The translations under genes and the position numbers were made by a program. 64,000 bases of DNA from a candidate division WWE3 bacterium RIFOXYB1_FULL_43_24 (GTDB taxonomy: Bacteria > Patescibacteriota > WWE3 > UBA101185 > UBA10185), in assembly GCA_001773135.1 (NCBI GenBank), contig MEVX01000003.1, forward strand, positions 172 through 64,171, read 5' to 3'. Shown piece after piece: positions 1-48,823 of this stretch (the first letter of the stretch is position 1; each line of letters opens with the position of its first letter). The notes under the pieces are model-generated. The model was not told the DNA's origin. It made no database searches and saw only the letters and a list, made by a program, of their open reading frames with translations.

Positions 1-10
1 GGCACGCACC

Positions 11-1156
11 TTGGATCTGGAAACTTTCGGTAAGTATGCCCTGTTATCCACGCTTCTTCTTACTATTTCTAAAATCGTGGATTTCGGCGCAAATTCGGTT
101 TACGTTGCAAGATCTATAAAGGAACAAAATAGCAGCCTTTCCAACACACTCTTCACGTTAAAAGTAATTCAATTTTTAGTCTCGGTTCCTATTTCGTTAA
201 TCAGCTTAAAGTTATTAAATATTTTTGACGGGACAATTGCCACGTTGTTTATACTCGGAATTCTTGCCTACACGATGAACTACCTTTTCTATGCTTACTT
301 TCAACGCGCAGAAAAATATGCCGGGATGGTTCTTTTAAATACAGTCCCTCAGTTGATTAAAGGTGTTTTTGCTTTTCTATTTTTCGCGGCTACTGTAACA
401 CCCAGCCTTCACCTAGCTTTTGGAATTTTTTCGCTGTCTATTTTCGCCGGAGTAGTTTTATATTTCTTTTTACCCGCGGAGAACAAAAAGTTTATTTTCG
501 ATTTCCGCGGAGTCCGTGAACTTTTTAAGGAATCTTCACCGGCAGGTATTTCACAGATAGTTTATGAAAGCTGGGGGACCCTTAACAACGCGATCGCAAA
601 ATTTACAAAGGGTTTCGGCGACGTAGGAATACTATCGTTAGCAAACAAAATCTCGAATCTATTTTCCCTGGCATCACTTTCTATTTTTGCTGTTCTTTTG
701 CCGAAAAATGCCACACGCAAACTGACCGGAAAAAAATATGATTATCAGGAAACCGCACTTATAGCGGGTGGAATTATTGCCTTGGCGGTTGTGGCAATAG
801 CAGGTTCCGAGCTTTTTATTACAACCATATTCGGGGAGAAGTTTTCAGGGTCGGTAAAGCTCCTGGATATTTTAATTCTCGCCGCGGCAGTTTCGGCCAT
901 TCACACTTTCATAGAGAATCTTTTCTTCGTTGAGAGTAAGACCGGGTACATTATCGCCGCAACTGTCATAAAACTTTCTACGTACGGATTAACCGCCTTA
1001 ATTTTAGTACCGAAATTATCTTTATATGGAATTGCCTGGTCCAACCTAGTCTCTGCTATAGCGGGGCTAATAACGGCGCTCTATTTTATCTCCCGCTTTA
1101 AGGATTTACCACATCAGGAGCTGCAACCTGAGCATCATATTTCTTCTGAGATATAA
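11..1156 (+). CDS. MOP-superfamily polysaccharide biosynthesis protein / Wzx-like flippase, possibly 5'-partial
   Basis: The translation is multi-TM and hydrophobic with a typical flippase C-terminus (ALYFISRFK). The reading frame is open back to base 2, so the true start may lie upstream of the window. 381 aa is short for a 12-TM flippase. Confidence 0.5.
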   Translation: MDLETFGKYALLSTLLLTISKIVDFGANSVYVARSIKEQNSSLSNTLFTLKVIQFLVSVPISLISLKLLNIFDGTIATLFILGILAYTMNYLFYAYFQRAEKYAGMVLLNTVPQLIKGVFAFLFFAATVTPSLHLAFGIFSLSIFAGVVLYFFLPAENKKFIFDFRGVRELFKESSPAGISQIVYESWGTLNNAIAKFTKGFGDVGILSLANKISNLFSLASLSIFAVLLPKNATRKLTGKKYDYQETALIAGGIIALAVVAIAGSELFITTIFGEKFSGSVKLLDILILAAAVSAIHTFIENLFFVESKTGYIIAATVIKLSTYGLTALILVPKLSLYGIAWSNLVSAIAGLITALYFISRFKDLPHQELQPEHHISSEI

Positions 1157-3959
1157 AGTACCAAAGTACCCAGTCACCTCGCTCCTCAACAACAACCGGA
1201 TTGTAATTAAATCCGGCGACATTCTCGCTAAATCTTCCCTTTTTTGTAAGGAGAATAGTAGGCTTCTCGTACACAGGTATAGGTACGCGGTCGATCCTAT
1301 CCGCCCTAAAGTCCAGTATCTCAAACGGACCGTCGGTATAGTACACCGCAAGAGGAATGTCCATGCGGTCGATGTAAATTTTGGCATCTGTACCGAAGGT
1401 TTTATCCTTTAATACCAAAAGTTCGGCTTCAGCCCCCGTAAGATCTGACGTGTAGACCATGTCGCGGTAATAAAAAAGATACGCCAAAGATACAGCCACT
1501 ATTAAAAAGACGGCCGAGAGCTTGAACCAGAGCTTATCAAATTTCCTGAACCGTCCCATAAAATATCTAAGAAAACGGTCGATAAAAGAACCGACTATCA
1601 AAGCAAGTGGGGGATACAGCGGAATTACATACCACACAAGTTTGGATTTGGCGGTAGAGAAGAATAAAAATACAAACAAAGCCCAGATAAGTAAAAATGC
1701 ATAAACCCTTCTTTTTTTGAATACTTTATAAATTGCCGCGGGAAAGGCAGCTAATAAAACAATAAACCAGAGACGCATGCTGACCTTCAAAACTATCAGG
1801 TACCAGTAAAAAGGTCTTCCTTTATCTTCAATGGCTGTGGTAGCTCTATCCCAAACATGATAGCCTAGGTATTGGTTCAAAAATGCTATACCGAACGTTT
1901 TGAGCGTATAAAGATGCCACGGCAAAGCTATAACAGCCCAGCCTAATAACATAAATAAAAACGGTTTAAGTGCTTTAACCGACAACTTCGTCTGTTTTGT
2001 TAATAAAAGGTACAGCTCGCACAAAATGAGCACCGGAAATGGAATAAGCCCCACAACACCTTTTGTCATTACCGCAAACCCGGCAAACATCCCCGGGAAC
2101 AGCCACAAAAAAGTCTTTTTCTTTCCCCTTACAAAAATGTAGGAAAGGAGGGAAGCCGAGATGAAAAAAGTTACGGTCACATCCGTCATAGCAGCGCGTG
2201 AATAATATAAGTATTGGGTGGTTGTTAACAGTACTAGCGCGGATAAAAAGCCGGCTGTTTTGTTAAACATTTTTTTGCCGGCGAAATAAACCATCATCAC
2301 TATTAGAAATCCCATAATTGCGCTCGGGAACCTCGCGGCCAAAGGAATCACACCCATCACCGACATAAATCCGGACATCATCCACATGTATAAAGGAGGT
2401 TTTTCGTACCACACAGACGGGGGTCTCCATTCCTGAACAAGATACTCACCTGAAGTAACCATGTTCTTGGCAATTTTGGCATAAATTGCTTCGTCATAAG
2501 GAATTAGGTGATTTTTCCCAAGTCCCTGAAAGATGAGTACGCCTGCTAAAATACCCAAAACCAAAGGAACTATTTTCTCCGATCTGAAAAAGTATGAAAA
2601 GACGATACTTCTACCGTACTTTTCATAAACGGTGCCCGCACCCCACGCGGCAATAAAAGAAAATATTATCCAAAAAAATTCCGAATTATAAGAATAAAAA
2701 ATTCCCGCTGTGAGCCATCCGATAATTGTTGAAAAAAATACAGCACTAATTAAAAATTCTTTCTTTTTTTGTAATTTCAAAGCTCCATATAAAAGTGCGG
2801 CGAGCATGGCAAAAGCAAATACGGTAAATGTCGTTAATCCTAAGATACCAGTCTCTGCTATCAGCTCACCCCAGATTGTGTGAGCAGGAACTCTTGTGTT
2901 TAAAGCGGCGGGATCACGGCTAAAGTACGTAGGAGCTATTTTCGTGCTACTAAAATGTTCGAAAAATGACCCGTACCCTCCCCCGATCAAAGGGTACTCC
3001 TCAAATATCTGTGTTGCTCCGGTCAAAAGCATGAAGTGCGAGTCAAACGAATCCATTCTGTAATGAAAATATTGCTTAATGCGCGCTCTAAAAGGACTTG
3101 ATTTTATGCTGTATTCCCTTAAAAAGGGTACTGAGATCACGGCAAGAGCTACAAATAGATACAAAACGCCTTTTGACCCGATCTTCCTGAAAAGAAGCGT
3201 GGAGATGAATACTAAAAACGTAACTCCCGCCATAATCCAGGCTGTGCGGCTGTTAGTAAGTAAAAGCGCCGCAAGCATTGAGATAAACATCAGAACATCA
3301 ACTGCCCTACCTTTTAAGCTTTTTCCGGTTATTATTAAAACGCCTAACAAAGGTAACAAGGCTGACAGTAGCGCCCCGTAATGATTCACGTCCCAAAAAG
3401 TCGAACCGACCCGGGGCAAGTTTCCCGGAATATTCCACAACGCCCCGATTATTACGCCTTTAGTTTGATACAACCAAAACTGAAACCATCCGAACAACGT
3501 AAGCGTGAACGCCGTGTAAATATAAAAGCGGAGATATTTTACTATTTGGTGAGCATTCTTCTTGTACGTAAAGTAAACCAGCAAAAAAGCAGCTACAGAA
3601 GTCGTAAAAAATCCCAGCAAAAATATAGAGGATTGAATATTTTTCGAATTTATTAACGATATTAAACGCACAATCCATAACAGTACGAGAGAAACCACAA
3701 TCGGATCTTTTAGTTTTTCGAAAAGTGCGGGAAAATTTCTTTCTTTAATTAACCACATTACGGCACGCGTCAAAACCGCGGCAAGAAGTGCGAGCATAAA
3801 AGCTCGGATGGGCATCAAGTCCCATCTATAAAAGCTAAAAAGTTCTTTGTGAAGAAGGACGGAAAGTAAAATAAGAATATACACCGCAAAATTTAGGTTA
3901 CGGAGTATTAGTATGTACGACAGGATGCAAATTGTTGCTATTACTACGATTTCTGCCAT
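1098..3959 (-). CDS. Fusion membrane protein with an O-antigen-ligase (Wzy_C)-like domain and an ArnT/PMT-like GT-C glycosyltransferase domain
   Basis: 953 aa. The N-terminal half is polytopic and carries LLTNSRTAWIMAGVTFLVF, which resembles the Wzy_C/WaaL signature. The middle carries YDEAIYAKIAKNMVTSGEYLVQEW...WYEKPPLYMW, which parallels the ArnT N-terminal DE..Y..E...EKP motif. The C-terminal ~120 aa is soluble. Confidence 0.6.
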   Translation of the reverse strand: MAEIVVIATICILSYILILRNLNFAVYILILLSVLLHKELFSFYRWDLMPIRAFMLALLAAVLTRAVMWLIKERNFPALFEKLKDPIVVSLVLLWIVRLISLINSKNIQSSIFLLGFFTTSVAAFLLVYFTYKKNAHQIVKYLRFYIYTAFTLTLFGWFQFWLYQTKGVIIGALWNIPGNLPRVGSTFWDVNHYGALLSALLPLLGVLIITGKSLKGRAVDVLMFISMLAALLLTNSRTAWIMAGVTFLVFISTLLFRKIGSKGVLYLFVALAVISVPFLREYSIKSSPFRARIKQYFHYRMDSFDSHFMLLTGATQIFEEYPLIGGGYGSFFEHFSSTKIAPTYFSRDPAALNTRVPAHTIWGELIAETGILGLTTFTVFAFAMLAALLYGALKLQKKKEFLISAVFFSTIIGWLTAGIFYSYNSEFFWIIFSFIAAWGAGTVYEKYGRSIVFSYFFRSEKIVPLVLGILAGVLIFQGLGKNHLIPYDEAIYAKIAKNMVTSGEYLVQEWRPPSVWYEKPPLYMWMMSGFMSVMGVIPLAARFPSAIMGFLIVMMVYFAGKKMFNKTAGFLSALVLLTTTQYLYYSRAAMTDVTVTFFISASLLSYIFVRGKKKTFLWLFPGMFAGFAVMTKGVVGLIPFPVLILCELYLLLTKQTKLSVKALKPFLFMLLGWAVIALPWHLYTLKTFGIAFLNQYLGYHVWDRATTAIEDKGRPFYWYLIVLKVSMRLWFIVLLAAFPAAIYKVFKKRRVYAFLLIWALFVFLFFSTAKSKLVWYVIPLYPPLALIVGSFIDRFLRYFMGRFRKFDKLWFKLSAVFLIVAVSLAYLFYYRDMVYTSDLTGAEAELLVLKDKTFGTDAKIYIDRMDIPLAVYYTDGPFEILDFRADRIDRVPIPVYEKPTILLTKKGRFSENVAGFNYNPVVVEERGDWVLWYFISQKKYDAQVAAPDVVNP

Positions 3960-5092
3960 TTAGTTAGAACTTCCTGATAAACCTCAAGTGTTTTAGCTGC
4001 AGCTTTTTCCCAAGTATATTCCTTCCTTAACTCGTCGGCAATTTGAGGTCTCGGGGCTTTAAGCTGGGTTTTTATTGCATCGGCAATCGAGTCGACGTTT
4101 CCCGGGTCGCAATAAGAAGCATGGTCTTTAAGGTATTCGCGGGCTCTTTCACCTGAGGCCACGGCGTTTGCTCCGCAAAAGAGGGCTTCCAGACTGGTCA
4201 GGCCGGTTGTTTCGAACCAGCTTGCGCTAACCCCAACTTTAGCGTTTCTATAATAATCCGGCATCTCCTGGTAAGGAACTTTCTCTACGTGATGAATCCA
4301 CGGGCTCATAGCTTTTTTCTCATTAAACATTCTGCCGTATTCAAAGTGTTTTAATCCGGTCGAAACACCTATGAGAACTAACTGCAGATCTTCACCCACT
4401 TCACTGCGCAACTTTTCAACAGCAGAAATTATATTCAACTGATTTTTTCTGGGCTCTATACGTCCGACACAGATAATATAATCTTTCAAATTAAGGGGGT
4501 TCGTTTCGTCAGTCCCGGCGCCCTGTTCAATAAAGTTTCTGCTTACGCCGTTCGGAACTTTTACAGCGTCTATCTTTACACCGAATGTTTTTTCCAAATC
4601 TTTTGTCTCCAGGTCCGTCTGTACCAAAACCTTTTCCGACATTTCTAAAACTTCTTTTTGCATTTTTTGAAACCCGTGCGTAATGCTCACAAGCGTAGGT
4701 TTAATTTTTTTAGGGTCGGTTAATGATCTGTAAACATTTTTAAAAGTGTCGCGATGGAACTGGTTGCTGAAAAGAACTTTGGAAAGTCTTCGGAAGTCGA
4801 ACACGTACTCGTCATCAAATCTCTTCACCTCTTCTATGCTGTGATGTATGGGAGATAAAATTATGGGTTTTGCTGCGTCGTGTGCTTTCCGGGCGTATAA
4901 ATAGGTTTCGGGCGTCCAGTCCAGTTGAAATATATGGATGACATCGTAATTTTGAGGGATAAAATCCTCATCCGTCCTGATTTCAACATCGGCGCCCAGA
5001 GCTCTTAATTCACGGGCGGTGTTCTCTATCTGTACTTTGTCCCCGCCACCGTGTTCCATCAAGTGGTATCTCCCGAGCATTAATATTTTCAT
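3944..5092 (-). CDS. Glycosyltransferase family 4 (GT-B, GT1-domain)
   Basis: Translation is MKILMLGRYHLMEHGGGDKVQIENTARELRALGADVEI. It has the typical GT4 N-terminus and a C-terminal GT1 domain. It overlaps the downstream gene by 4 bp. Confidence 0.7.
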   Translation of the reverse strand: MKILMLGRYHLMEHGGGDKVQIENTARELRALGADVEIRTDEDFIPQNYDVIHIFQLDWTPETYLYARKAHDAAKPIILSPIHHSIEEVKRFDDEYVFDFRRLSKVLFSNQFHRDTFKNVYRSLTDPKKIKPTLVSITHGFQKMQKEVLEMSEKVLVQTDLETKDLEKTFGVKIDAVKVPNGVSRNFIEQGAGTDETNPLNLKDYIICVGRIEPRKNQLNIISAVEKLRSEVGEDLQLVLIGVSTGLKHFEYGRMFNEKKAMSPWIHHVEKVPYQEMPDYYRNAKVGVSASWFETTGLTSLEALFCGANAVASGERAREYLKDHASYCDPGNVDSIADAIKTQLKAPRPQIADELRKEYTWEKAAAKTLEVYQEVLTKWQKS

Positions 5093-6237
5093 TTTTTCTT
5101 TAGTAGCCTTTCGTAAAGAGAGACATAACTATTTGTAAAAGCTTTTATCGTGTAAAGTTCTGTGACTCTTTGCTTACCTTGCAGATGAGGAATGTTTTCG
5201 TTATTAACATACTTTTCATAAGCTTCTATCATTTTTTCGGCGAGGTCTGACGAGTCGCCTGCGCGAAAATATGTCACGGTGTCTCCCGCAACTTCTTTTA
5301 GTACCTCAAGGTCAGAGCATATAACAGGGAGTTCCGAATACATTGCCTCGATTAAGACTAGCCCGAAACCTTCGGCCAGTGTCGGGAACACAAAAAAGTC
5401 AAATGCCGAATAATACTTCACTAAATCCTCAGGAGGAAATTCCCCGGTAAAAATAACTTTATCCGCTATTCCTTTTGTGGCTGCTAGTTTCCTTATCTCA
5501 TCTTCGGACTCGCCACCTCCGGCGATAAACAGCATGAAGTCTTTAGAATGATACATGTCGGTGCCTAAGAATTTTTTGTACGCGTCTAAAAGAATATCGT
5601 GACCCTTTTCTCTGGAAATCCTACCCAAATTTCCGAATACGAAAGCGTTTTTATTTATTCCGTATCTTTTTCTGATCTCTTCTTCGTAGTCTGTTCTGGT
5701 GATTTGAGAAATAGTGAGTTTAGTTATGTCCAGACCGTTCGGGATAACAACAATCTTGTCTTTTTTTATACCCTCTTTTATTTTGACTTTCTTTTTTGAC
5801 TCCGTCAGGGCAATCTCCGCGTCGGAAAAACGATTAACAATAAAACTATAGAACAAAGAGTCTATTTTCCGTCTGGTCGGGCTTATTTTCCATTCTGAGA
5901 TAGGTGTGTGGACGTGTGTTATTTTGACCGGAGTGTGAGCGTTTCTGGCCGCAGCAAGAGCATTAGCTGCTGCCTTTAGTTCGTGTGCGTGAATTACATC
6001 AATTTTATTATCTACCAAAAAGGTGGTCAGCTCTGAGATGTAAGGAGCATCAAAATCAGAGGATATACTTTTTCTTGTTACTTTCGCTCCGGCTTCTTCA
6101 TAAATATCCGCAGGTTTTCCGACAGGGCACCAAACATAAACGTCGTGCCCCTCCCCCAACATTCCCTTAATTAAGTCCAGAACGTGTTGTTCCATCCCTC
6201 CCTGTTTAGATGAATTGTGTGAGTAAAGTATTTTCAT
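5089..6237 (-). CDS. Glycosyltransferase family 4
   Basis: Translation is MKILYSHNSSKQGGMEQHVLDLIKGMLGEGHDVYVW, with the GT1 domain FVFPTLAEGFGLVLIEAM (EX7E-like). Confidence 0.75.
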   Translation of the reverse strand: MKILYSHNSSKQGGMEQHVLDLIKGMLGEGHDVYVWCPVGKPADIYEEAGAKVTRKSISSDFDAPYISELTTFLVDNKIDVIHAHELKAAANALAAARNAHTPVKITHVHTPISEWKISPTRRKIDSLFYSFIVNRFSDAEIALTESKKKVKIKEGIKKDKIVVIPNGLDITKLTISQITRTDYEEEIRKRYGINKNAFVFGNLGRISREKGHDILLDAYKKFLGTDMYHSKDFMLFIAGGGESEDEIRKLAATKGIADKVIFTGEFPPEDLVKYYSAFDFFVFPTLAEGFGLVLIEAMYSELPVICSDLEVLKEVAGDTVTYFRAGDSSDLAEKMIEAYEKYVNNENIPHLQGKQRVTELYTIKAFTNSYVSLYERLLKKK

Positions 6238-6238
6238 T

Positions 6239-7456
6239 TCACTTTTTAATAAGATCGCCGATTATTCTCAACATTCTCTCAACTTTTCCGTCCCAATCGT
6301 TACTCTTTGCTACTTTTTGTCTGGCGGCTCTTTTTTCCGCATCATCTTCTTCTAAAGCTTTTCTCACGAACTGAGAAAACTCATTATAACTTTTTGCAAT
6401 GTAACAAACATCTGCGAACGGAGCGTACGCCGGAAGATCGGTAACAATTGTGGGTAAACCTGCCGCCAACCCTTCATGAAATTTTACAGGAAAACATCCC
6501 CCAACAGTATAGTCATTAAGTCTGTAAGGTATTATGGTGGCGTCGAAAGCTGCCACATATTTATGTATCTCGGAAAATTGTTTGGTGCCGAGGAAGTAAA
6601 GATTTGGTAATCCGCCTAGCCCCAATTCCTCAAGAGACCCCTCCCTATCTTTTAGTGCAATGGGCCCTATGATAACGAATGAGTATTTCGGGTAGTCAGT
6701 CACGATCTTTTTCATAAGATCTTTATCAAACTTGTAATCATCAACTGCCCCGTAAAAACCAACGATGGGGTGCGGAACTGATTTTATATCTTCGGGAAAA
6801 ACTTTTATTTTTTCTTTTATTCCGAAAAACTTAGGGTAATCACCGACGTTGGGGGTGAAATAAACATTAGAATTAAATTTCTTAAGCTTCTCCACCAACC
6901 CCGGAGCCGTTGAAAAAACTACATTTGCTCTCATTGCGAGATTCTGTTCTTTTTTGTTGATAGCTTCTTTTTTCTCGGGAGTGTTGTATTTGGGGAATCC
7001 GGAATAATTATCAACGCAGTCGTAAACCAGAAAATCGTGCTCGATGTATTTTAAATAACTCTCAAGACCCGCGATTTCCACGTGATATACCCAAAGTATA
7101 GTTTCACGGTCGGGATTAAAAAAATTCTGAGTGACTTTTTGTATAGATTTGGCATGAAACTCCGCGTGCTTTTCGTGAACGGGGGAAAAATCCAAAGGTG
7201 AGTATACGACTACGTTTCCGGATCTTTGTTTTTTCGTGATAAATCTTGAAAGGTTCCATTTTCCCTGCAAAACCTGGCGTATAAACAAACGCCCGGTGTT
7301 AATAGGAGGATCAACGAACAACACATTATGCCCAAGCTTCTCCAGCCTTGTCATGACATGCTTTTTGTTCGTCCAGAGGGGATAATCCCATAGTTGGTTC
7401 GAAAGGCAGATTATGTTGTATTTTTCACCTTGCTGATGCATATCCGAATTCCGCAC
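6239..7456 (-). CDS. Glycosyltransferase, GT1-domain (TuaH-like)
   Basis: N-terminus IICLSNQLWDYPLW. The C-terminus FPVKFHEGLAAGLPTIVTD resembles the GT1 nucleotide-sugar binding region. Confidence 0.5.
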   Translation of the reverse strand: MRNSDMHQQGEKYNIICLSNQLWDYPLWTNKKHVMTRLEKLGHNVLFVDPPINTGRLFIRQVLQGKWNLSRFITKKQRSGNVVVYSPLDFSPVHEKHAEFHAKSIQKVTQNFFNPDRETILWVYHVEIAGLESYLKYIEHDFLVYDCVDNYSGFPKYNTPEKKEAINKKEQNLAMRANVVFSTAPGLVEKLKKFNSNVYFTPNVGDYPKFFGIKEKIKVFPEDIKSVPHPIVGFYGAVDDYKFDKDLMKKIVTDYPKYSFVIIGPIALKDREGSLEELGLGGLPNLYFLGTKQFSEIHKYVAAFDATIIPYRLNDYTVGGCFPVKFHEGLAAGLPTIVTDLPAYAPFADVCYIAKSYNEFSQFVRKALEEDDAEKRAARQKVAKSNDWDGKVERMLRIIGDLIKK

Positions 7457-7525
7457 AATATCCTATCACTATTAGATAATTCAGTCTAACAGACATTGAG
7501 GTCATTTTAGCCTCTTTTTTTCCGA

Positions 7526-8899: not shown

Positions 8900-8936
8900 T
8901 GTAGTTTCATTATATAGCAGGAAAGAAGTAAAGAAA

Positions 8937-8968
8937 TGGGGCTAAAAGGATAAAGAAACTTTTAGCCC
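8937..8968 (-). terminator. Intrinsic terminator hairpin (perfect 11-bp stem ggggctaaaag/cttttagcccc)
   Basis: It is a perfect inverted repeat with a 10-nt loop. On the minus strand it is followed by the T-rich tract atttctttacttctttcc. It lies downstream of the minus-strand small ORF and GT4 gene and upstream of the 7526..8899 gene. Confidence 0.45.
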
Positions 8969-9023
8969 CGGGTGCTACGGTGTGGGGAGGAGAGGAACCA
9001 TTCCCGTAGCGGATGTAATCTTT

Positions 9024-9209: not shown

Positions 9210-9267
9210 TCTACTCCAGTCTTTCTAAGATTCCTGAATACTAACATACTGCGGGGGTTGTATCAAA

Positions 9268-14781: not shown

Positions 14782-14799
14782 AAAGTATTTATAGCCTAA

Positions 14800-39769: not shown

Positions 39770-40456
39770 TCAGTCCGTAAATCTATATTTTATTAGCGTG
39801 AACAATGCGTGTATTCCATCTCTCCAAGTTATCTTTTTACCTTCGCTATGTGTACGCCCTCTATATGAGATTGGAACTTCTCTTATCTTTAAACCCGACT
39901 TCAATATTTTTGCCGTAATTTCAGGTTCAAAATCAAACCTTTCTGATTTTATATTCACTTTTCTCACAAAATCTCCCGGCATTAATTTATAGCAGGTCTC
40001 CATATCGGTAAGCATTACACCGAAGAAAATGTTCGTAATTAACGTAAGTAATTTGTTACCGAAGTAATGTAGTGTTGACATATCCTCGTAACTTCCCGAA
40101 AATCTGCTTCCATATATAACCTGCGCGTTGTACTCGTCTAACGCACGGATAAGTTTGTGGTAATCATTGGGATCGTACTCAAGGTCGGCGTCTTGCACAA
40201 TTACGTAGTCTCCGGTAGTATGCTGAAACCCGAGCTTCAGTGTGTGACCTTTTCCCCTATTTTTCTCTTTATAGTAGAACCGGATATCGGGATGAACCTT
40301 TTCCAACTCTTTTAGAATGTCGGTTGTGCCGTCGGTAGAAGCGTCGTCCACTACGATTATTTCTTTGTCTATACCTTCAACAGCCTTGATCTCGTCCAAA
40401 ATTTTCTCGATCGTGTTTTTTTCGTTGTACACGGGAACAACAATAGATAGTTTCAT
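39770..40456 (-). CDS. GT2 polyprenol-phosphate glycosyltransferase (DPM1-like)
   Basis: It carries LSIVVPVYNEKNTIEKILDEIKAVEGIDKEIIVVDDASTDGT and VQDADLEYDP. Confidence 0.75.
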   Translation of the reverse strand: MKLSIVVPVYNEKNTIEKILDEIKAVEGIDKEIIVVDDASTDGTTDILKELEKVHPDIRFYYKEKNRGKGHTLKLGFQHTTGDYVIVQDADLEYDPNDYHKLIRALDEYNAQVIYGSRFSGSYEDMSTLHYFGNKLLTLITNIFFGVMLTDMETCYKLMPGDFVRKVNIKSERFDFEPEITAKILKSGLKIREVPISYRGRTHSEGKKITWRDGIHALFTLIKYRFTD

Positions 40457-41970: not shown

Positions 41971-43135
41971 ATATTCCGTCTATTCCCTCTATTTTTGTAT
42001 TCCACGAGTGTTTAGATCTTATGAGCTGGACATCAACATCTCTCGGGGTACTTGTTATTTCTAAAATTTTATTTGCAATCGTTTGGGGTTCCAGATTTTC
42101 AAGATAAAACACGCCTCTTATATCTTCGTTTATTTTAAAACCGGAAACCAGACAGGGAATACCGCACGACAGCCCCTGCATAACAGCTTTAGGCAACCCT
42201 TCCCATGAGGAAGGAAGCACGAATATATCTGATACCTGGTAAGCAATTGGAACGTGGGGGTAGGGAGTATAGCCTGTTTTAATTATTCTGGACTCCAGTT
42301 TTTTTAGTTTTATCTGCTCATTTAACTTTTCTACATAAGTCGGATCGCCCGTTCCTGAAAGCAGTAATTTATAATCTCCGGGTAACAACGCGAGCGCATC
42401 AATTAACAAGTGGATGTTTTTTCTTTCGTTCATTACACCGTGGTTGAGTATAACTTTATCGAATCTGTCGAATCCTATTTCTCTGCGGGACTTATCTTTT
42501 TCTTCCTCGCCCACGGGTACGAACATTTCCGTGTTTACTCCGGTCTCGATTAAGAAACATTTGGCCGGATTTGCACCGTAATATTCCTGCGCTTCTTTAA
42601 CGTTATCCGCACTAACAAAAATACACGCAGATGCCGCTTTTACTGCCATCTTGTCAGAAAAAACAGCCATCGGCCAACCCAGCATCTTAGACATGGGCTT
42701 GATGGGCTTTCCCTGCTTCTCAAACGTAACCCATCTGCCTTTTGCGGTATTGTGAAAGTGAACAACTAAAGGTATTTTAAGTTCTTTTGCCCAGGGGAAA
42801 TGCTTTTTCAAAAATACTCTGTAAACGTAAAGCCATATTGCAAAATGCCCGTGGCAGTGAATTACGTCAGGCTTATTTGTTTTTCTGTATTTTAAATAGC
42901 GGAAAAATAGAACAACACTGCTTGTGAAAAAAATTGTATCGGGGTAAGGTTCCCGGTCGATGGCGTTGATTTCTAAACCGTCAAGTTTTACGGGGCCGCC
43001 CGAGTTAGGCCACTGTCCGCAGAACAAAGTTACTTTATGCCCTTGCTTCAGCTGTGCTGCCGTAATTTCGTATGGATGGGGAGCCAGTCCCTGCCAGGGA
43101 TTTGGCCAGTCATATACTATTCTTAAAATATTCAT
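41942..43135 (-). CDS. Glycosyltransferase family 4
   Basis: The GT1 domain is VLPSSWEGLPKAVMQGLSCGIPCLVS. Confidence 0.7.
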   Translation of the reverse strand: MNILRIVYDWPNPWQGLAPHPYEITAAQLKQGHKVTLFCGQWPNSGGPVKLDGLEINAIDREPYPDTIFFTSSVVLFFRYLKYRKTNKPDVIHCHGHFAIWLYVYRVFLKKHFPWAKELKIPLVVHFHNTAKGRWVTFEKQGKPIKPMSKMLGWPMAVFSDKMAVKAASACIFVSADNVKEAQEYYGANPAKCFLIETGVNTEMFVPVGEEEKDKSRREIGFDRFDKVILNHGVMNERKNIHLLIDALALLPGDYKLLLSGTGDPTYVEKLNEQIKLKKLESRIIKTGYTPYPHVPIAYQVSDIFVLPSSWEGLPKAVMQGLSCGIPCLVSGFKINEDIRGVFYLENLEPQTIANKILEITSTPRDVDVQLIRSKHSWNTKIEGIDGIYDFAIKNYI

Positions 43136-44325
43136 GCTCTTATTTCCTTAAATATTTCCTCATAAGAGTCTAACATTTTATCAAGCGTAAATCTCTCCAT
43201 TGCCTTGTTTAAAGCATTAGCACCCATCTTTCGTGCCGTTTCCGGACTATTTTTCAGCTCATTCAATTTACTCTTGAATACATAGAATTTGCCGGGATTT
43301 ACGAGGTATCCCGTCTCCCCGTCTGTAATGGCATCCGAAACACCCCCAAGATTAAAGGCTACGATAGGAAGTTGCCCGAACATAGATTCAACTAAAACCA
43401 TTGGAAAACCTTCGATTCTTGAAGTAGGAAAAACAAAAGCATCGAACCTTGCCGGATTGTACATCCGTAAAACTTCGGTGTAGTCGAGTTTCCCACGCAA
43501 AATTATTCTTCCCTCGCTTTTTCCGGAAATCACACCCAGCTCTTCCTGTAATTCACCTGCTCCTACAATATCTAATGTAAAATCTTTCATGTCTTCGCCG
43601 GCAATTATTTCGGCGAGCTTTCCTATACCCTTCGAACGTATAAGTTGACCCACGTAAAGTAAACGGAATTTTCCGGCAATACCTCTGTCGCCTTCAACCG
43701 GTTCGGTTTTTAGAGGTTTTATTCCATTATTTATGACCCTGACTTTTGATTCTTCAACGAAAGTCTCTTCGACCAAAGCCTTTTTTACTGAATTAGACAC
43801 CGCCACAACAACACCGGAACCATGTACAAACTCACGCTGTACTGTAAAAAAATTTTTAAACACGTGAGGAAGGTCGAGGAAAGATTTTAACAAACCCTTA
43901 ACAGACGGATCGCTTTTTAACTTTGTATGAAGTTCGCCAATCTTCGTTCCGTGAGATATAGAAACGATAGGCAACCCAAACTCTTCCTTGTTTCTAGTCA
44001 CACCTACCGCACCCGAACTCTGTCCTAAAATTAATTCAAATTTTTCTTCTCCGTGCATATCACGGAACACTTCATAAGACTTTGCCACCCAGCTATCTTT
44101 TTTCGAAACTGTTACAGAACTGTACTGCGCTGTTTTACACTCTACAAAAATATATTTAACTCCGTTTTCTACCGCCTGTTCTTTTTCTTTAATAATTCTT
44201 GGGGTAAACACCGTAACTTTGTGGCCGCGTGAAACCAATCCCTCACATAAAAGTTTGTTCTGAGTTTCCAGCCCACCGTAAGAACCGCTGAAGGTCGTGG
44301 ATTTTATAAAGACGGCGATTTTCAT
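43132..44325 (-). CDS. Glycosyltransferase family 4
   Basis: The GT1 domain is VFPTSRIEGFPMVLVESMFGQLPIVAF. Confidence 0.7.
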   Translation of the reverse strand: MKIAVFIKSTTFSGSYGGLETQNKLLCEGLVSRGHKVTVFTPRIIKEKEQAVENGVKYIFVECKTAQYSSVTVSKKDSWVAKSYEVFRDMHGEEKFELILGQSSGAVGVTRNKEEFGLPIVSISHGTKIGELHTKLKSDPSVKGLLKSFLDLPHVFKNFFTVQREFVHGSGVVVAVSNSVKKALVEETFVEESKVRVINNGIKPLKTEPVEGDRGIAGKFRLLYVGQLIRSKGIGKLAEIIAGEDMKDFTLDIVGAGELQEELGVISGKSEGRIILRGKLDYTEVLRMYNPARFDAFVFPTSRIEGFPMVLVESMFGQLPIVAFNLGGVSDAITDGETGYLVNPGKFYVFKSKLNELKNSPETARKMGANALNKAMERFTLDKMLDSYEEIFKEIRA

Positions 44326-45531
44326 TTACAGTGACTCCTTTACAATAAGGTCTTCCAGTTCAACAGCGTTTCTTTCAATATCAAATTCCGAAGATACTTT
44401 ACGGTACGCTTCTTTGGCGAGTCCTTCTGCCAATTGTTTATCGTTTAAAATAAGTTTAAGACCGTCTGCCAAAGCTGACGGGTCTTTTTGAGGAACTATT
44501 ACCCCACTGACACCGTTTTCCAAAAACTCTTTTGTACTCCCGGAGTCCGTGGCCACAATGGGCAAATGCGAGGCAGCTGCCTCTAGCAGAACATTCGCAA
44601 TGCCGTCGGCATCCCCTTCCTCCGTGTTAATGCCGGAAAATACGAATACGTCACTTTCGGCATAATATTTTTGGGTTTCCGAAAACGGAAGACCGGCGCC
44701 CCCTCCCAATATCTCAACATAATCCGATAATCCCAAAGATGAAATCTGTTCACTAAGTTCCGCGTATAAACTACCGGGACCTATTAGCAACATTTTGAAA
44801 CTCATGCCGTCGTTACGGAGAATTTTTGCAGCTTCCAACAAATATTTATGACCTTTTTTCTCTTCGAGACGGCCGATGTTAAGTATCACAGGCACGTCAG
44901 ACTTCCTTCCTGCGCTATCGAACTTTGTGAGGTCTAATCCGTGATATTTTAATATAACTTTGTGGGAATAATCGGGAGCAACTGCCTTAACACAACTTTC
45001 ATGCGCGTGCTTATTGCAGATTAAAACAAAGGTCGCATTCTCGGATTTTTCTTTCATGCAGTGAGGACTAACTGTTATATCTTTCGCGTGCGCAGATATT
45101 GCGTAAGGAACATCGAGCACCATCGCAGCCACCATCACAATGGTGCTGGATTCAGACATAAAGTGTGCGAGTATGAAGTCCGGTTTGGAGGATGAGAAGA
45201 TTTGCGCATAGCCCATACCTTTTAACAAGGTGTAGTACGGGCTGCCACACCCCTTTATAACACCCAAAGCTTTGGAAATATTTTTTCCGGCGTTGAAGAA
45301 AAACCTCAACGACAGTATAAGGTCCAAAATGGAAAGTCTTTTGTATCTCACGAGAGGTTCGAGAACGGGACTCACTTCACCCGACGCCCTAAGCAAAGAC
45401 ATTACGGAAAGGTCCAGATTTCCTCTTTCAGCTATTTTCGCGATCTCGCGTTCAATGAAAGTCTCCGTCAGCACCGGAAATTCCGGTATGAAGATAATGA
45501 CCTTCTTTTTAGTGCTGTCCGGTTGAACCAT
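44326..45531 (-). CDS. Glycosyltransferase family 4
   Basis: The GT1 domain is EGDADGIANVLLEAAASHLPIVATDSGSTKEF. Confidence 0.7.
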   Translation of the reverse strand: MVQPDSTKKKVIIFIPEFPVLTETFIEREIAKIAERGNLDLSVMSLLRASGEVSPVLEPLVRYKRLSILDLILSLRFFFNAGKNISKALGVIKGCGSPYYTLLKGMGYAQIFSSSKPDFILAHFMSESSTIVMVAAMVLDVPYAISAHAKDITVSPHCMKEKSENATFVLICNKHAHESCVKAVAPDYSHKVILKYHGLDLTKFDSAGRKSDVPVILNIGRLEEKKGHKYLLEAAKILRNDGMSFKMLLIGPGSLYAELSEQISSLGLSDYVEILGGGAGLPFSETQKYYAESDVFVFSGINTEEGDADGIANVLLEAAASHLPIVATDSGSTKEFLENGVSGVIVPQKDPSALADGLKLILNDKQLAEGLAKEAYRKVSSEFDIERNAVELEDLIVKESL

Positions 45532-46894
45532 TGGTGTTAAGTAGTACCGTCTGATACAAGTTCCTTGTATCTATTTTAACCATACCGTTAGTCCTTTTAC
45601 CAACAGCAAAGTATGTAAAGCCCGTGCTCTCAACTTTTGAACGATCCAGAAGGTTTCTTCCATCAAAAATAACTGGCGATTTCAACATTGCTTTTACCTT
45701 GTCGAGCTCGATTGTTGCAAATTCCTGCCACTCGGTTAGTACAAACAAAGCATCCGCACCCGGCATAGTTTCGTATTTATCCAGACAATATTCAACGTTT
45801 ACCGAACCTAAAACCTGCTTAGCGTTGTACATAGCTTCGGGGTCGTAAACCTTCAATGTTGCACCTAATCCGCGCAACTTCTTGCACAATTCTATTGAAA
45901 CGGAATCTCTTATGTCGTCGGTGTTGCCTTTAAATGCCAAACCTAATATTGCGAACGTTCTTCCGGAAAGATTTTTTCCGAAATGTCTGAGAACTTTATT
46001 CATAAAGTTCTCTCTTTGAGCAATATTGACTTCCATAACGCTTCTTAAAAGCTTGAAATCGTAGTCCTGGTCGGTTGATGTTTTGTATAAGGCTGCAACG
46101 TCCTTAGGGAAACAGCTTCCGCCGTATCCTATACCTGCGTTCAGAAAAGCTGCACCTACTCTTTTGTCTAAACCCATACCTTTTGCAACTACCGTAACGT
46201 CGGCTCCGGCTCTTTCACAGATTTGAGCAATCTCGTTGATAAATGATATTTTTGCAGCCAAAAATCCGTTTGAAGCATACTTAATCATTTCAGCTGACCT
46301 GAGGTCGCACTCAACAATAGGGGTATTCAGATGCTCGTAGAGTCTTCTCATTACAGAGTGAGCTTTTTCGGTCTCGGCACCGACAACAGTTCTGTCGGGT
46401 TTAGCCATATCTTCAACCGAAGAACCTTCTCTTAAAAATTCCGGATTTGAGGCGACATCAAACTCAATCTGCTGGTTAGCAAGATTTTCTTTGATGATCA
46501 TTTTTACTTTTTCATTTGTTCCTACCGGAACAGTACTTTTTGTAACAATAACTTTGTATCCGTTCATACTCTTACCGATGTCTTTTGCAACTTCCCACAC
46601 CTGCGAGAGATCTGCCGCACCCGTGTCGCTTTGAGGAGTGCCCACGCAGATAAATACAATTTCGGCGTCTTTAATACCATCTGCAATTGAAGTCGTGAAC
46701 GAAAGTCTATTTTGCGCTATGTTTCTTAAAACGATCTCTGATAAACCGGGTTCGTAAATCGGCATTTCGCCTTTTTTTATTCTTTCGATCTTTTCGGTGT
46801 CTATATCAACACCCACAACTTCATTACCCCAATCCGAAAAAATTGCAGCTCCTACCAAACCTACATAACCTGTTCCTATTACGCATAGTTTCAT
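45509..46894 (-). CDS. ugd: UDP-glucose 6-dehydrogenase (nucleotide-sugar dehydrogenase family)
   Basis: The N-terminal Rossmann motif is MKLCVIGTGYVGLV. The catalytic region is GGSCFPKD. The C-terminal UDP-binding domain is present. Confidence 0.85.
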   Translation of the reverse strand: MKLCVIGTGYVGLVGAAIFSDWGNEVVGVDIDTEKIERIKKGEMPIYEPGLSEIVLRNIAQNRLSFTTSIADGIKDAEIVFICVGTPQSDTGAADLSQVWEVAKDIGKSMNGYKVIVTKSTVPVGTNEKVKMIIKENLANQQIEFDVASNPEFLREGSSVEDMAKPDRTVVGAETEKAHSVMRRLYEHLNTPIVECDLRSAEMIKYASNGFLAAKISFINEIAQICERAGADVTVVAKGMGLDKRVGAAFLNAGIGYGGSCFPKDVAALYKTSTDQDYDFKLLRSVMEVNIAQRENFMNKVLRHFGKNLSGRTFAILGLAFKGNTDDIRDSVSIELCKKLRGLGATLKVYDPEAMYNAKQVLGSVNVEYCLDKYETMPGADALFVLTEWQEFATIELDKVKAMLKSPVIFDGRNLLDRSKVESTGFTYFAVGKRTNGMVKIDTRNLYQTVLLNTNGSTGQH

Positions 46895-46946: not shown

Positions 46947-47720
46947 TTACTTGGCAGTGTTGTAAAGGCCCATAATATCGTTCAGCCTTATCTTCAAAAC
47001 GTCAAGTCCCATTTTAACGGAATCACGGACGGGGCTTACCCGCGTGGTCTTAACGTGAGTCCAGACTATCGGAACTTGTTTGACATTATACCCCAGTTTC
47101 TTGGCTAAGTACAAAACCTCTACATCCCATGCTCCGGTGTATGGTTTGTCCAATTCTTTGGTGTTTTTACCGTAAACTTTCATTCTTCCGAAGATATCCT
47201 TGGCCACAGAACCCTTGAAAAGCTTAAATCCGCACTGGCTGTCTCTGATACCGGGCAAAGCAACAATTTGTATCATCAGGTTGAAAACCCTACCCATCGC
47301 GTGACGGTAAAAAGGTTCTCCCACCCTTTCGGCTCCTATTCCTTCTCTGGATGCGATTGCGATATCAAAGTTTTGATCGGTAATCCAAATAGCCAGCTTC
47401 TTTAGTTCCGTCATGGGAGCTGAAAGATCGGCGTCCGCCATATAAATAAGATCACCAACTGCCGTGTTCATTCCGGTCAAAACTGCAAAACCTTTTCCTT
47501 TATGTGGATTTCTTATCACTCTGACTTCGGGATTTTCCACCGCATACTCTTCCACTATAGAAGCAGTAGCGTCCTTGCTACCATCGTCGACTACGATAAT
47601 CTCAAAAGTGTCTGTAAAAGTTTTCATAAAATTAACGGCTTGTGTTAGTGATGAAGATATTTTGTCCGCCTCGTTGTATGCGGGTATAACTATTGAGTAA
47701 TTCATTTTTTGCCCTTCCAA
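46947..47720 (-). CDS. GT2 polyprenol-phosphate glycosyltransferase (DPM1/GtrB-like)
   Basis: It carries YSIVIPAYNEADKISSSLTQAVN...FEIIVVDDGSKDAT and MADADLS. Confidence 0.75.
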   Translation of the reverse strand: MEGQKMNYSIVIPAYNEADKISSSLTQAVNFMKTFTDTFEIIVVDDGSKDATASIVEEYAVENPEVRVIRNPHKGKGFAVLTGMNTAVGDLIYMADADLSAPMTELKKLAIWITDQNFDIAIASREGIGAERVGEPFYRHAMGRVFNLMIQIVALPGIRDSQCGFKLFKGSVAKDIFGRMKVYGKNTKELDKPYTGAWDVEVLYLAKKLGYNVKQVPIVWTHVKTTRVSPVRDSVKMGLDVLKIRLNDIMGLYNTAK

Positions 47721-48823
47721 ATTATTTTACTATAAACAGTAAAATTCCATATCAGCCCGAATATTATACCAATTAAAAACGCCGTGTTTGAAACAAGTGC
47801 GGTATCACCGAATGTGCTGACCGCAAATCCTACAAGTTTTGAACGGACGAATATAGGTATGAACGAAGAAGTAATGTAAATAACAAACCCTAAAACTTTC
47901 TCTTTCACTCCCTCAATCTTTCGTTCGCCGAAAGACCAGTAGTTATTTAACAGGAACGTCACCATCATTGCAACAAACCCTGATGCCAGTGCAGCATTGC
48001 GGGAACTTAAAATACTGATTCTTAAAATATTAAATAGACTGGCGTCAACTATAAATCCTGCAACACCTACGAAAAGAAATTTGACGAAGCTTTTATTTTC
48101 GTTGTACCTGAGCAGGACGACAACTCTTAGCGAGTCCCTTAAATTGTTTTTTTCCATTTTGGAATCACCGCGGTCACGTAGTCCGAATTTTATCGGAACT
48201 TCCTTTATTTTTGCTCCCAATCTGTGCATTTTGAACAGGAGGTCAATCTTATAAGCGAATCCCTGAGAAAGTATTTTGTCCAATGACAGCCTGTCGACAA
48301 ATCCTTTAACACGTGAGGCTTTAAAACCGGAAGTGAAATCGTTTACATTAAAAATACCTAAAACTAGTTTTGAAAAAATGTTTCCGCCCACACTGAAAAA
48401 TTTCCTTTTAAAGGCCCATTCTTCCGGTATGCTTCCGCCCTTTGTAAATCTGGAACCTATTACGTAGTCATAACCATTATCTATTTCGTCGATAAGTCTC
48501 ACCATATCTTTTGGGTCGTGCTGGAAGTCTGCGTCCATCTCAACTATCACGTCGGCTTTCAGTTCGTTCATTGCTTCTCTGAAACCGTAAACGTACGCTG
48601 CACCTAAACCGGCCTTAACTTTTTCCATTAGTAAATGAACGTTCAGATTACTTTTCATCTTTTCACGGACTATGTTGGCTGTACCGTCGGGAGAATTTCC
48701 TTCAACAACCAGGATATGAAAATCGTGTTGAGGTCTTTTCAGAAACTCCTGCTGAAGAACATCTGTGAGCCTTCCTATATTTTCCGCCTCATTATAAGTA
48801 GGTATAACAATAACTATTTTCAT
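47702..48823 (-). CDS. GT2 polyprenol-phosphate glycosyltransferase fused to a C-terminal GtrA-like membrane domain
   Basis: The N-terminus is MKIVIVIPTYNEAENIGRL...VEMDADFQHDP. The C-terminus has 4 TM helices (FLFVGVAGFIVDASLFN...) typical of GtrA. Confidence 0.7.
   Translation of the reverse strand: MKIVIVIPTYNEAENIGRLTDVLQQEFLKRPQHDFHILVVEGNSPDGTANIVREKMKSNLNVHLLMEKVKAGLGAAYVYGFREAMNELKADVIVEMDADFQHDPKDMVRLIDEIDNGYDYVIGSRFTKGGSIPEEWAFKRKFFSVGGNIFSKLVLGIFNVNDFTSGFKASRVKGFVDRLSLDKILSQGFAYKIDLLFKMHRLGAKIKEVPIKFGLRDRGDSKMEKNNLRDSLRVVVLLRYNENKSFVKFLFVGVAGFIVDASLFNILRISILSSRNAALASGFVAMMVTFLLNNYWSFGERKIEGVKEKVLGFVIYITSSFIPIFVRSKLVGFAVSTFGDTALVSNTAFLIGIIFGLIWNFTVYSKIIWKGKK

Follow-up and report, generated by a model that had tools for sequence, protein, structure and literature searches.

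A lineage-conserved, GT-C-rich glycosyltransferase locus in WWE3 (Katanobacteria) and its likely role in making a cell-envelope heteropolysaccharide

Bacteria of the candidate phyla radiation (CPR; Patescibacteria) are ultra-small, mostly uncultured episymbionts whose surface chemistry is essentially undescribed. What does such a cell build with nearly 49 kb of tightly packed, sugar-related genes? We take up this question for a 64,000-nt stretch of the candidate division WWE3 bacterium RIFOXYB1_FULL_43_24 (contig MEVX01000003.1, positions 172 to 64,171; hereafter "the window"), in which the locus occupies positions 1 to 48,823. An initial annotation, made from the sequence alone, had described a glycoconjugate island rich in GT-C enzymes and DPM1-like synthases and devoted to extracytoplasmic glycosylation. 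Our family inventory supports that function. Comparative analysis shows a chromosomal locus kept throughout WWE3, with conserved arms and a hypervariable centre. On balance, we favour the view that it directs, by a hybrid route, the synthesis of a complex cell-envelope heteropolysaccharide of these presumed monoderm bacteria, most likely a secondary wall polysaccharide resembling the rhamnose-rich cell-wall polysaccharides (Rha-CWPS) of Gram-positive bacteria, or a lipoglycan.

Gene content of the locus

Based on open reading frame (ORF) layout and a Pfam scan of every ORF in the window, positions 1-48,823 hold 36 locus genes, and all but one lie on the minus strand. These 35 are consecutive (1098 to 48823) and most junctions fall between -44 and +69 nt (overlaps of 1-44 nt or gaps below 70 nt), which bears out the co-directional, tight packing noted initially. 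Two places break this pattern, a 368-nt gap (8899-9268) and a 2.75-kb block of small plus-strand ORFs at 23.8-26.5 kb; this block had been overlooked, as had the orientation of the first gene, which runs opposite to the rest and is truncated where the window begins. Glycosyltransferases, flippases and sugar-modifying enzymes account for 32 of the 36 genes, a share far beyond chance.

There are 25 glycosyltransferase genes, including eight or nine for GT-C enzymes. Nine belong to GT4 (starting at 3944, 5089, 6239 [weak], 9268, 11964, 18759, 41942, 43132 and 44326) and seven to GT2 (21246, 22265, 28440, 29446, 39770, 46947 and 47702), with four of the seven being DPM1/DPMS-like. Eight GT-C enzymes are demonstrable, and one DUF2079 protein (37653) would make a ninth; six proteins pass the PMT_2/PMT Pfam thresholds (1098, 7526, 31528, 33120, 34603 and 40459). 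Three Wzx-type flippases of the multidrug/oligosaccharidyl-lipid/polysaccharide (MOP) superfamily (1-1156 on the plus strand, 30254 and 36179) score above threshold for PF01943/PF13440. Four S-adenosylmethionine (SAM)-methyltransferase domains are spread over three proteins (10428, 11102 and 19877), and Ugd (45509), a B12-type radical SAM enzyme (26515) and a ferredoxin (28180) are each encoded once. The earlier gene counts were right to within one per class: three MOP flippases, four methyltransferase domains, about seven GT2, Ugd, the radical SAM enzyme and the ferredoxin were all reproduced by Pfam, GT4 rose from about eight to nine and DPM1-like enzymes from three to four, and of about nine GT-C proteins eight stood, the DUF2079 protein being the one that could not be shown to be a GT-C.

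Three ORFs have no Pfam match (13198, 527 aa; 14800, 120 aa; 15143, 1207 aa), and all three are predicted to be polytopic. Paralogues within the window are deeply diverged, at most 43% identical, and are therefore distinct enzymes; on the same ground we rejected a recent origin of the GT-C and GT4 genes by tandem duplication. Scans of the whole window for tRNA and Rfam families gave no match, and sigma-70 promoters and terminators in the 22.5-29 kb region were not enriched over shuffled sequence.

Conserved arms and a hypervariable centre

To compare gene order, we scanned one genome per species with the DUF2079 protein as query, which yielded 11 loci (comparison loci carry L numbers below); tblastn with the window proteins was informative for nine. 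The 28-49 kb arm is colinear in all nine WWE3 loci, including distant genomes at 40-70% protein identity, and adjoins the ribosomal/SecY/Adk operon in every WWE3 genome recovered. Its order runs from the CAP-domain gene through the DPMS/GtrA GT2, GT2, Ugd, three GT4, PMT_2, GT2, DUF2079, MOP, three PMT_2, MOP, GT2 and GT2 to the ferredoxin. The genes of this arm, in window coordinates, are as follows.

28180-28437, minus strand: 4Fe-4S ferredoxin (PF13370 38.6 bits), conserved in L010-L014
28440-29453, minus strand: GT2 with three predicted C-terminal transmembrane helices (PF00535 49 bits, PF13632 34.6 bits)
29446-30279, minus strand: DPM1-like GT2 (PF00535 94 bits), with near full-length PpgS and PgfS matches, plus ArnC
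30254-31531, minus strand: Wzx-type MOP flippase (PF01943 66 bits, PF13440 55 bits)
31528-33120, minus strand: GT-C of PMT_2 type (PF13231 46.7 bits), D34/D44 invariant
33120-34646, minus strand: GT-C of PMT_2/PMT type (PF13231 50 bits, PF02366 41 bits), D43 invariant
34603-36177, minus strand: GT-C of PMT_2/PMT type (PF13231 26.9 bits, PF02366 24.3 bits), D36/D41 invariant
36179-37648, minus strand: Wzx-type MOP flippase (PF13440 63.5 bits, PF01943 62 bits)
37653-39761, minus strand: DUF2079 polytopic membrane protein of 702 aa, presumed GT-C (PF09852 123 bits)
39770-40456, minus strand: soluble DPM1-like GT2 (PF00535 126 bits), with full-length AglJ, PpgS and DPhHxTase matches
40459-41970, minus strand: GT-C of PMT_2/PMT type (PF13231 38 bits, PF02366 24.5 bits), E31/D34 invariant
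41942-43135, minus strand: GT4 (PF00534 75 bits, PF13439 72 bits)
43132-44325, minus strand: GT4 (PF00534 80 bits)
44326-45531, minus strand: GT4 (PF00534 108 bits)
45509-46894, minus strand: Ugd, UDP-glucose/GDP-mannose dehydrogenase family (PF03721 226 bits, PF00984 124 bits, PF03720 111 bits)
46947-47720, minus strand: soluble DPM1/ALG5-like GT2 (PF00535 107 bits), with ArnC and DPhHxTase matches
47702-48823, minus strand: DPMS-type GT2 with a GtrA/DPMS transmembrane domain (PF00535 90 bits, PF04138 49 bits), first gene of the locus

At its other end, too, the locus is conserved, in the order PMT_2, three GT4, a Wzy_C/ArnT-like fusion and a convergent flippase. The flippase gene starts before the window, encodes 414 aa in the contig (the full gene is present in L001-L003) and is kept at the same position in the relatives' loci L007 and L008.

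1-1156, plus strand: Wzx-type MOP flippase (PF01943 51.5 bits), converging on the locus
1098-3959, minus strand: fusion of Wzy_C and ArnT/PMT_2, 953 aa, about 19 transmembrane helices (Wzy_C 47 bits, PMT_2 77 bits, PMT 56 bits)
3944-5092, minus strand: GT4 (PF00534 67 bits), orthologues 57-88% identical in L007/L008
5089-6237, minus strand: GT4 (PF00534 121 bits, PF13439 83 bits)
6239-7456, minus strand: weak GT4-like protein (PF13692 33.7 bits; PF00534 26.1 bits against a cut-off of 26.4)
7526-8899, minus strand: GT-C of PMT_2 type (PF13231 40.6 bits), E34/D35 invariant among orthologues

Between these ends the locus changes from genome to genome. DNA colinearity with the RAAC2-type relative (L008) consists of a single 78% block covering window positions 1-9026, and its break falls inside the 368-nt gap at 8899-9268. 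A relative at 70% identity (L004) has no DNA match across 14.1-22.3 kb, and the 14-22 kb interval has the lowest GC of the window (0.36-0.39). The variable part thus spans no less than 14-22 kb; in comparison with other relatives it takes in all that lies above 9 kb. The break in colinearity, the low GC and the missing DNA match together suggest cassette exchange between strains. Within this region, a trio encoding an AftD-like protein, a 120-aa membrane protein and a DUF6311 protein holds its position but is only 28-36% identical among relatives, in contrast to 70-90% for flanking genes, and the GT4, GT2 and methyltransferase genes around it vary genome to genome. The initial annotation had missed both this architecture of conserved arms and variable centre and the continuation of the locus past coordinate 1.

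9026-22300, no strand: hypervariable centre, where blastn colinearity breaks and gene content differs among L004, L006 and L008
9268-10431, minus strand: GT4 of the variable cassette (PF00534 106 bits), absent from L008
10428-11105, minus strand: SAM-dependent methyltransferase (PF08241 67 bits)
11102-11971, minus strand: SAM-dependent methyltransferase (PF08241 89 bits)
11964-13154, minus strand: GT4 of the variable cassette (PF13439 64 bits, PF00534 52 bits)
13198-14781, minus strand: DUF6311-type protein of predicted GT-C fold, 527 aa, whose homologues carry PF19830
14800-15162, minus strand: small membrane protein, 120 aa, three to four transmembrane helices, no family match, 20-nt overlap with the AftD-like gene
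15143-18766, minus strand: AftD-family GT-C, 1207 aa, assigned by transitive homology to PF11847
18759-19880, minus strand: GT4 (PF00534 68 bits)
19877-21268, minus strand: two-domain SAM-methyltransferase protein (PF08241 94 bits, two matched stretches)
21246-22277, minus strand: GT2 with a C-terminal transmembrane segment (PF00535 97 bits)
22265-23302, minus strand: GT2 with a C-terminal transmembrane segment (PF00535 84 bits), orthologues 68-80% identical in L004/L006
23322-23762, minus strand: membrane protein, 146 aa, weakly YdjM-like (PF04307 21.7 bits, below the cut-off of 29), L004 orthologue 64% identical
26515-28125, minus strand: B12-binding-type radical SAM enzyme (PF04055 66 bits; PF02310 24 bits, below cut-off)

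Past the convergent flippase, relatives show two arrangements: GT4, Bac_transf and DUF4012, or RmlD, RmlA, RmlB, RmlC, GT2, three GT4 and then the same GT4, Bac_transf and DUF4012. Bac_transf (187 bits) lies 2.5-9 kb past the flippase in L007, L008 and L009. In the Pfam scans no window gene matches the initiating phosphoglycosyltransferase families PF02397 or PF00953; given its position in relatives, the initiator missing from the window therefore lies just beyond it. Because the locus continues past coordinate 1, its true size in relatives is about 60 kb, as in the 864-kb contig WJKK01000001.1. The window stretch is also the end of contig MEWC01000021.1, and each assembly of the strain itself stops some 1.3 kb beyond coordinate 1. 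Among 24 contigs with an identical 953-aa protein, the three with the most flanking DNA (L001-L003) all stop right behind the convergent flippase, about 1.3 kb downstream of the gene. This shared contig end hints at strain heterogeneity or a repeat there.

These comparisons do not bear out the term "island". GC is 0.36-0.44 inside the locus against 0.40-0.46 outside, window scans found no mobility genes or tRNA at the locus, and gene order and neighbours are conserved lineage-wide, which together rule out acquisition as an island. Some distant WWE3 genomes have housekeeping genes inserted behind the second MOP flippase, so the locus is ordinary chromosome and not a mobile unit. In WJKK01000001.1 (L016, 13607-18338), a DUF84 NTPase, prolyl-tRNA synthetase (ProRS), an Elp3-like radical SAM/GNAT protein and an LPG_synthase_TM-family membrane protein lie inside the locus.

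Proteins identical to those of the window occur in WWE3 (Katanobacteria) bins from Rifle groundwater, in agreement with the CPR assignment made at the outset. Upstream of the locus and on the same strand are genes for a CAP-domain membrane protein, Adk, SecY, the ribosomal protein operons, EF-Tu and EF-G; the apparent truncation of EF-G at the window end is an artefact of the window boundary. The CAP/SCP-domain protein (49083-50072, minus strand), a possible surface protein, has N- and C-terminal transmembrane helices and a Pro/Glu/Ala/Thr-rich linker, and in all WWE3 genomes examined whose sequence extends to this point it is found, at 50-87% identity, with Adk on one side and the glycan locus on the other. 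In the ribosomal operon (52284-53184, minus strand), the genes for S5 and L15 adjoin directly, in that order, and L30 is missing from its place between the two.

The plus-strand block at 23831-26426, which divides the locus in two, consists of nine small ORFs (66-102 aa) opposite to the locus, none with a Pfam match. They include two paralogue pairs (23831/24553 at 37% identity and 25814/26118 at 29%), and a nearly identical pair of 41-nt hairpin-plus-T-run elements lies at 24499-24539 and 25097-25137. For two of these ORFs L004 has counterparts in the corresponding place, 37-40% identical, so they look like real genes.

Beside this block, the radical SAM gene comes after the ferredoxin gene in L010-L014 (relatives of at least 74% identity, where the gene start is seen). 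The enzyme is a candidate sugar C-methylase or catalyst of another radical sugar modification, with the ferredoxin as its probable electron donor. In NCBIfam it scores highest with HpnJ, but the 155 bits reached fall far short of the cut-off (578), and we rejected its identification as a true HpnJ.

GT-C enzymes, DPM1-like synthases and the Wzy_C fusion

The fusion protein (1098-3959) carries Wzy_C (WaaL/Wzy/PglL family) in its N-terminal half and an ArnT/PMT_2-type GT-C in its C-terminal half. The Wzy_C match (PF04932, 47 bits; cut-off 31.7) covers residues 224-378, and the alignment with ArnT 5EZM (E 2.5e-21 by sequence, E 1.8e-40 by profile) covers residues 471-797. Foldseek searches with its AlphaFold2 model (pLDDT 87) returned ArnT (TM-score 0.68) and WaaL 7TPG (TM-score 0.65, E 2e-6), with weaker matches to ALG9/ALG12 than to ArnT. 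Thus, the solved structure nearest to the GT-C half is ArnT, a lipid A-modifying enzyme, and not a PMT; the PMT family itself (PF02366) scores above cut-off in five window proteins. The fusion has homologues in at least 300 clusters from WWE3 and other Patescibacteria, and both domains are retained in all 120 homologue clusters listed (47-90% identity). The pair D489-E490 is invariant and lies in a "WDEAIY" sequence, as is typical of PMT/ArnT enzymes in their first outer loop. In the Wzy_C half, R291/R301/H308/R348/R356/H360 are invariant. Judging from sequence, this half could be a polymerase, a ligase or an O-oligosaccharyltransferase.

The 1207-aa protein is predicted to have about 10 N-terminal transmembrane helices, an extracytoplasmic domain of about 750 aa and a C-terminal transmembrane segment. 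The protein itself has no Pfam match, and direct PDB sequence searches, also with a 6-sequence profile, returned noise only; the link to AftD was therefore made through homologues. Residues 36-632 align at 31% identity (E 2e-62) with P0002, a protein from Parcubacteria, and the part of P0002 covered by this alignment matches PF11847 GT-C_AftD with 48 bits (cut-off 26). Relatives numbered 1859 in an exhaustive HMMER search, and 31 of 41 aligned relatives match PF11847. By this transitive homology, the protein is probably a divergent AftD-family GT-C. Pfam scans found no genes of the decaprenyl-phospho-arabinose (DPA) pathway among the window genes.

Its neighbour, the 527-aa protein, has no Pfam, NCBIfam or PDB sequence match, and its homologues carry DUF6311 (PF19830). 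An AlphaFold model built from 55 sequences (pLDDT 91) has only GT-C proteins as its top Foldseek matches in the PDB (DPY19, ArnT, STT3/PglB, AftA, ALG3 and PimE), and we classify it as a GT-C by predicted fold. The 120-aa membrane protein between the two matches no GtrA, DUF2304 (GacJ) or other family in Pfam or NCBIfam; positional counterparts of 121-134 aa in L004 and L006 are 21-28% identical. As a guess, it could be a subunit, an activator or a small flippase for the neighbouring GT-C enzymes.

We presume the DUF2079 protein to be a GT-C on account of its Pfam clan and its invariant D39/D44 after the first transmembrane helix; hhalign alignments to GT-C families gave probabilities of 4-16%, and PDB sequence and profile searches gave no support either way. 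An acidic residue shortly after the first transmembrane helix is invariant in the orthologue sets of seven GT-C-type paralogues, with N-terminal D9 filling this place in the homologues of the DUF6311 protein. The AftD-like orthologue set, which was too small, gave no such residue. Together with the deep divergence of the paralogues, the invariant acidic residues argue for many distinct, functional linkage-forming steps and not for decaying duplicates.

The four DPM1-like GT2 proteins (29446, 39770, 46947 and 47702) form one related group. The product of 47702-48823 matches Pyrococcus furiosus DPMS (5MLZ) nearly end to end (residues 1-346, E 4e-38), and that of 39770-40456 matches its catalytic domain (residues 1-206, E 7e-18). 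NCBIfam returned AglJ, PpgS and DPhHxTase as near full-length matches and ArnC as a partial one, and the 46947-47720 product carries the UniRef name "dolichyl-phosphate beta-glucosyltransferase". Genes for a DPM1-like GT2, a MOP flippase and a GT-C are repeatedly adjacent between 28.4 and 41.9 kb. Altogether, the richness in GT-C enzymes and the presence of DPM1-like synthases point to glycosylation at the outer face of the membrane from lipid-phosphate-monosaccharide donors.

Proposed pathway, alternatives and known systems

From these families, folds and patterns of conservation we infer in what order the steps run, which donors and acceptor are used, and whether the product is single or multiple. 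Ugd would supply a uronic acid precursor and, in relatives, RmlABCD would supply dTDP-rhamnose. A chain could be initiated on polyprenyl phosphate either by the Bac_transf phosphoglycosyltransferase found beyond the window in relatives or by a DPM1/GacI-like GT2 acting on the monophosphate, as in the lactococcal polysaccharide pellicle (PSP). The nine GT4 and the non-DPM1 GT2 enzymes would extend it in the cytoplasm, soluble SAM methyltransferases would O-methylate it, and the radical SAM/ferredoxin pair may modify it as well; the earlier proposal of uronic acid and O-methylated sugars is reasonable on this gene content. Three Wzx-type MOP flippases would export lipid-linked intermediates, and the four DPM1/DPMS-like GT2, one with its own GtrA-type membrane domain, would make polyprenyl-phosphate-monosaccharides. 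Outside the membrane, eight or nine GT-C enzymes may branch or extend the glycan with these donors, and the fusion may polymerise it or ligate it to an acceptor. The conserved 28-49 kb arm would then specify an invariant backbone or core, and the hypervariable centre a strain-specific outer part.

Several points weigh against an envelope heteropolysaccharide of this kind. The sequences allow no assignment of donor sugars, as every GT2 falls far below the NCBIfam equivalog cut-offs. No initiating phosphoglycosyltransferase, chain-length regulator, LytR-CpsA-Psr (LCP)-type ligase or ABC exporter lies inside the window; for the chain-length regulator, Pfam found no Wzz/polysaccharide copolymerase (PCP) family among the window genes, and DUF4012 in relatives is a candidate accessory. 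For the DUF2079 protein as a GT-C, the searches gave no support either way. Wzy_C domains are also found in protein O-oligosaccharyltransferases, and the locus may encode more than one product.

Two or more independent glycan pathways might share the neighbourhood, for example a conserved wall polysaccharide and a variable capsule or exopolysaccharide. We regard this as the most serious competitor, though clearly the less likely reading: the opposite-strand block that divides the locus, the three flippases, the sharply unequal conservation of arms and centre, and the NTPase and ProRS genes that interrupt the locus in distant relatives would all fit it, but throughout the lineage the overall gene order and the end markers stay the same (DPMS-GtrA at the start; fusion, convergent flippase and Bac_transf at the close), and there is precedent for conserved and variable parts joined into one polymer (PMC10821137). 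General O-glycosylation of S-layer, pilin or other surface proteins seems unlikely. In such a scheme Wzy_C would act as a PglL/PilO/WsaB-type O-oligosaccharyltransferase, transferring glycans en bloc to Ser/Thr, and the PMT_2/PMT proteins would O-mannosylate secreted proteins from polyprenyl-phosphate-mannose. The family does include such transferases, the five proteins above cut-off pass the PMT threshold and not that of PMT_2 alone, the adjoining conserved CAP-domain protein has its P/E/A/T-rich linker, and methyltransferases and rml genes resemble those in the clusters for S-layer glycans in Geobacillus and Paenibacillus; Kantor et al. 2013 (PMC3812714) also proposed a glycosylated S-layer or glycoproteins for WWE3. 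However, 25 glycosyltransferase genes and three flippases far exceed the needs of known bacterial protein-glycosylation loci, the GT-C half of the fusion is closest to an enzyme with a lipid acceptor, the locus ends in relatives with Bac_transf and DUF4012, an arrangement reported for capsular and exopolysaccharide clusters, and no acceptor protein was identified.

Less probable still is a membrane-anchored lipoglycan of the mycobacterial phosphatidylinositol mannoside/lipomannan/lipoarabinomannan (PIM/LM/LAM) type, in which GT4 enzymes would act on a glycolipid anchor that is flipped and then elongated outside by GT-C enzymes, the AftD-like one included, from polyprenyl-phosphate sugars. The combination of GT4, DPM1-like GT2 and many GT-C enzymes mirrors the logic of PimA/B, Ppm1 and PimE/Mpt/Emb/Aft, a probable AftD-family GT-C is present, and the window lacks an initiating phosphoglycosyltransferase. 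Against this, the window has no Emb-type (PF04602), GT87 or decaprenyl-phospho-arabinose synthesis genes, while Wzy_C, the Wzx flippases and the nearby Bac_transf in relatives point to polyprenyl-PP-linked repeat units. Phosphatidylinositol anchors are not known from CPR bacteria.

We retain an envelope heteropolysaccharide as the favoured product. A bolder version of it, which we offer as improbable speculation, is that this is the principal, lineage-defining envelope polymer of Katanobacteria, made mainly on the outer face of the membrane by a GT-C "assembly line", and that it may partly take the structural place of peptidoglycan, whose pathway is reported to be incomplete; its centre would set host or phage recognition, and the fusion would be a bifunctional prime-and-ligate enzyme. 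If true, a 0.9-Mb genome would encode a GT-C assembly line as complex as that for mycobacterial arabinogalactan/LAM, and the fusion would be a new bifunctional type that primes an acceptor with one sugar and then ligates the polymer to it.

WWE3 genomes have been described as especially rich in glycosyltransferases, with polysaccharides, glycoproteins or a glycosylated S-layer suggested as products, dTDP-rhamnose genes present and an incomplete identifiable peptidoglycan pathway (Kantor et al. 2013, PMC3812714), and DUF4012 is among the CPR-enriched envelope families (Meheust et al. 2019, PMC6744442). Our literature search (Patescibacteria and GT-C, Katanobacteria and glycosyltransferases, DUF2079) found no description of the locus, its conserved/variable architecture, the fusion or the AftD-like/DUF6311 trio. 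In relatives with genomes of 0.86-0.90 Mb, a locus of about 50-60 kb takes up about 6-7% of the genome; its retention in fixed order in such tiny genomes argues that the glycan is central, be it for envelope integrity, host attachment or phage evasion. The work supplies specific genes for glycomics and cryo-electron tomography on WWE3 enrichments. Targets include the fusion, conserved in hundreds of Patescibacteria; the trio of AftD-like, small membrane and DUF6311 proteins, strain-variable like a serotype determinant; and several uncharacterised GT-C families, including DUF6311 and, presumably, DUF2079.

How does the locus compare with known systems? The initial annotation set it apart from a classical Wzy-type locus, which is half true. 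Like O-antigen, capsule and S-layer-glycan loci of the Wzx/Wzy type, it has three Wzx-type flippases, Wzy_C (in a fusion with a WaaL-like model), GT4/GT2 sets and a variable centre, with Bac_transf, rmlABCD and DUF4012 beyond the window in relatives. It differs in that its Wzy_C is permanently fused to an ArnT-like GT-C, no Wzz/PCP was seen in the window, and its GT-C enzymes outnumber those of any described Wzy locus. The dolichol pathway (DPMS, ALG GT-C enzymes, RFT1-like flipping) offers a DPMS match that includes the membrane domain and a similar course from a GT4 phase through flipping to GT-C enzymes outside, but the WWE3 locus has no STT3/AglB oligosaccharyltransferase; we read this resemblance as one of logic, not as shown descent.

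The mycobacterial line (AftA-D, EmbA-C, PimE, MptA-C, Ppm1) shares serial GT-C action on polyprenyl-phosphate sugars, a cytoplasmic GT4 phase and a probable AftD-family member with a large extracytoplasmic domain. Here, too, there are differences: the WWE3 locus is without Emb-type, GT87 and DPA-pathway genes and has Wzx and Wzy_C elements, and identity of its protein to AftD proper is undetectable by direct search. The three-component systems GtrA/GtrB/GtrC, CsbB/GtcA/YfhO and ArnC/ArnEF/ArnT use the same triad of GT2 synthase, flippase and GT-C. They are usually single accessory modules that add one side-chain sugar, whereas in WWE3 several such modules form the bulk of a locus of about 50 kb; MOP proteins are the main flippase candidates there, and a GtrA-type domain is found in 47702-48823.

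Among described systems, the Rha-CWPS of lactococci and streptococci are closest in logic. In those systems a GacI/WpsA-type GT2 starts on C55 polyprenyl phosphate (C55-P), the chain is extended in the cytoplasm and exported by a flippase of the Wzx type, and GT-C enzymes polymerise PSP and attach it to a conserved rhamnan, the distal part being strain-variable (PMC10821137). The Lactococcus cwps, group A carbohydrate (GAC) gacA-L and Streptococcus mutans serotype c carbohydrate (SCC) loci share with the WWE3 locus a DPM1/GacI-like GT2, Wzx-type flippases, GT-C enzymes acting outside, cytoplasmic extension, rml genes (in WWE3 relatives) and a conserved part beside a strain-variable one. Within the WWE3 window we detected neither an ABC exporter nor an LCP ligase, and no activator of the GacJ/WpsB (DUF2304) kind. 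In turn, the WWE3 locus has eight or nine GT-C enzymes against one to three, has four DPM1-like synthases, and adds the WaaL/Wzy_C-ArnT-like fusion, a probable AftD-family enzyme and the pair of B12-type radical SAM enzyme and ferredoxin, all in a 0.9-Mb CPR host. The kind of system is known and no categorically new mechanism is involved; its scale, composition and lineage-wide conservation are new.

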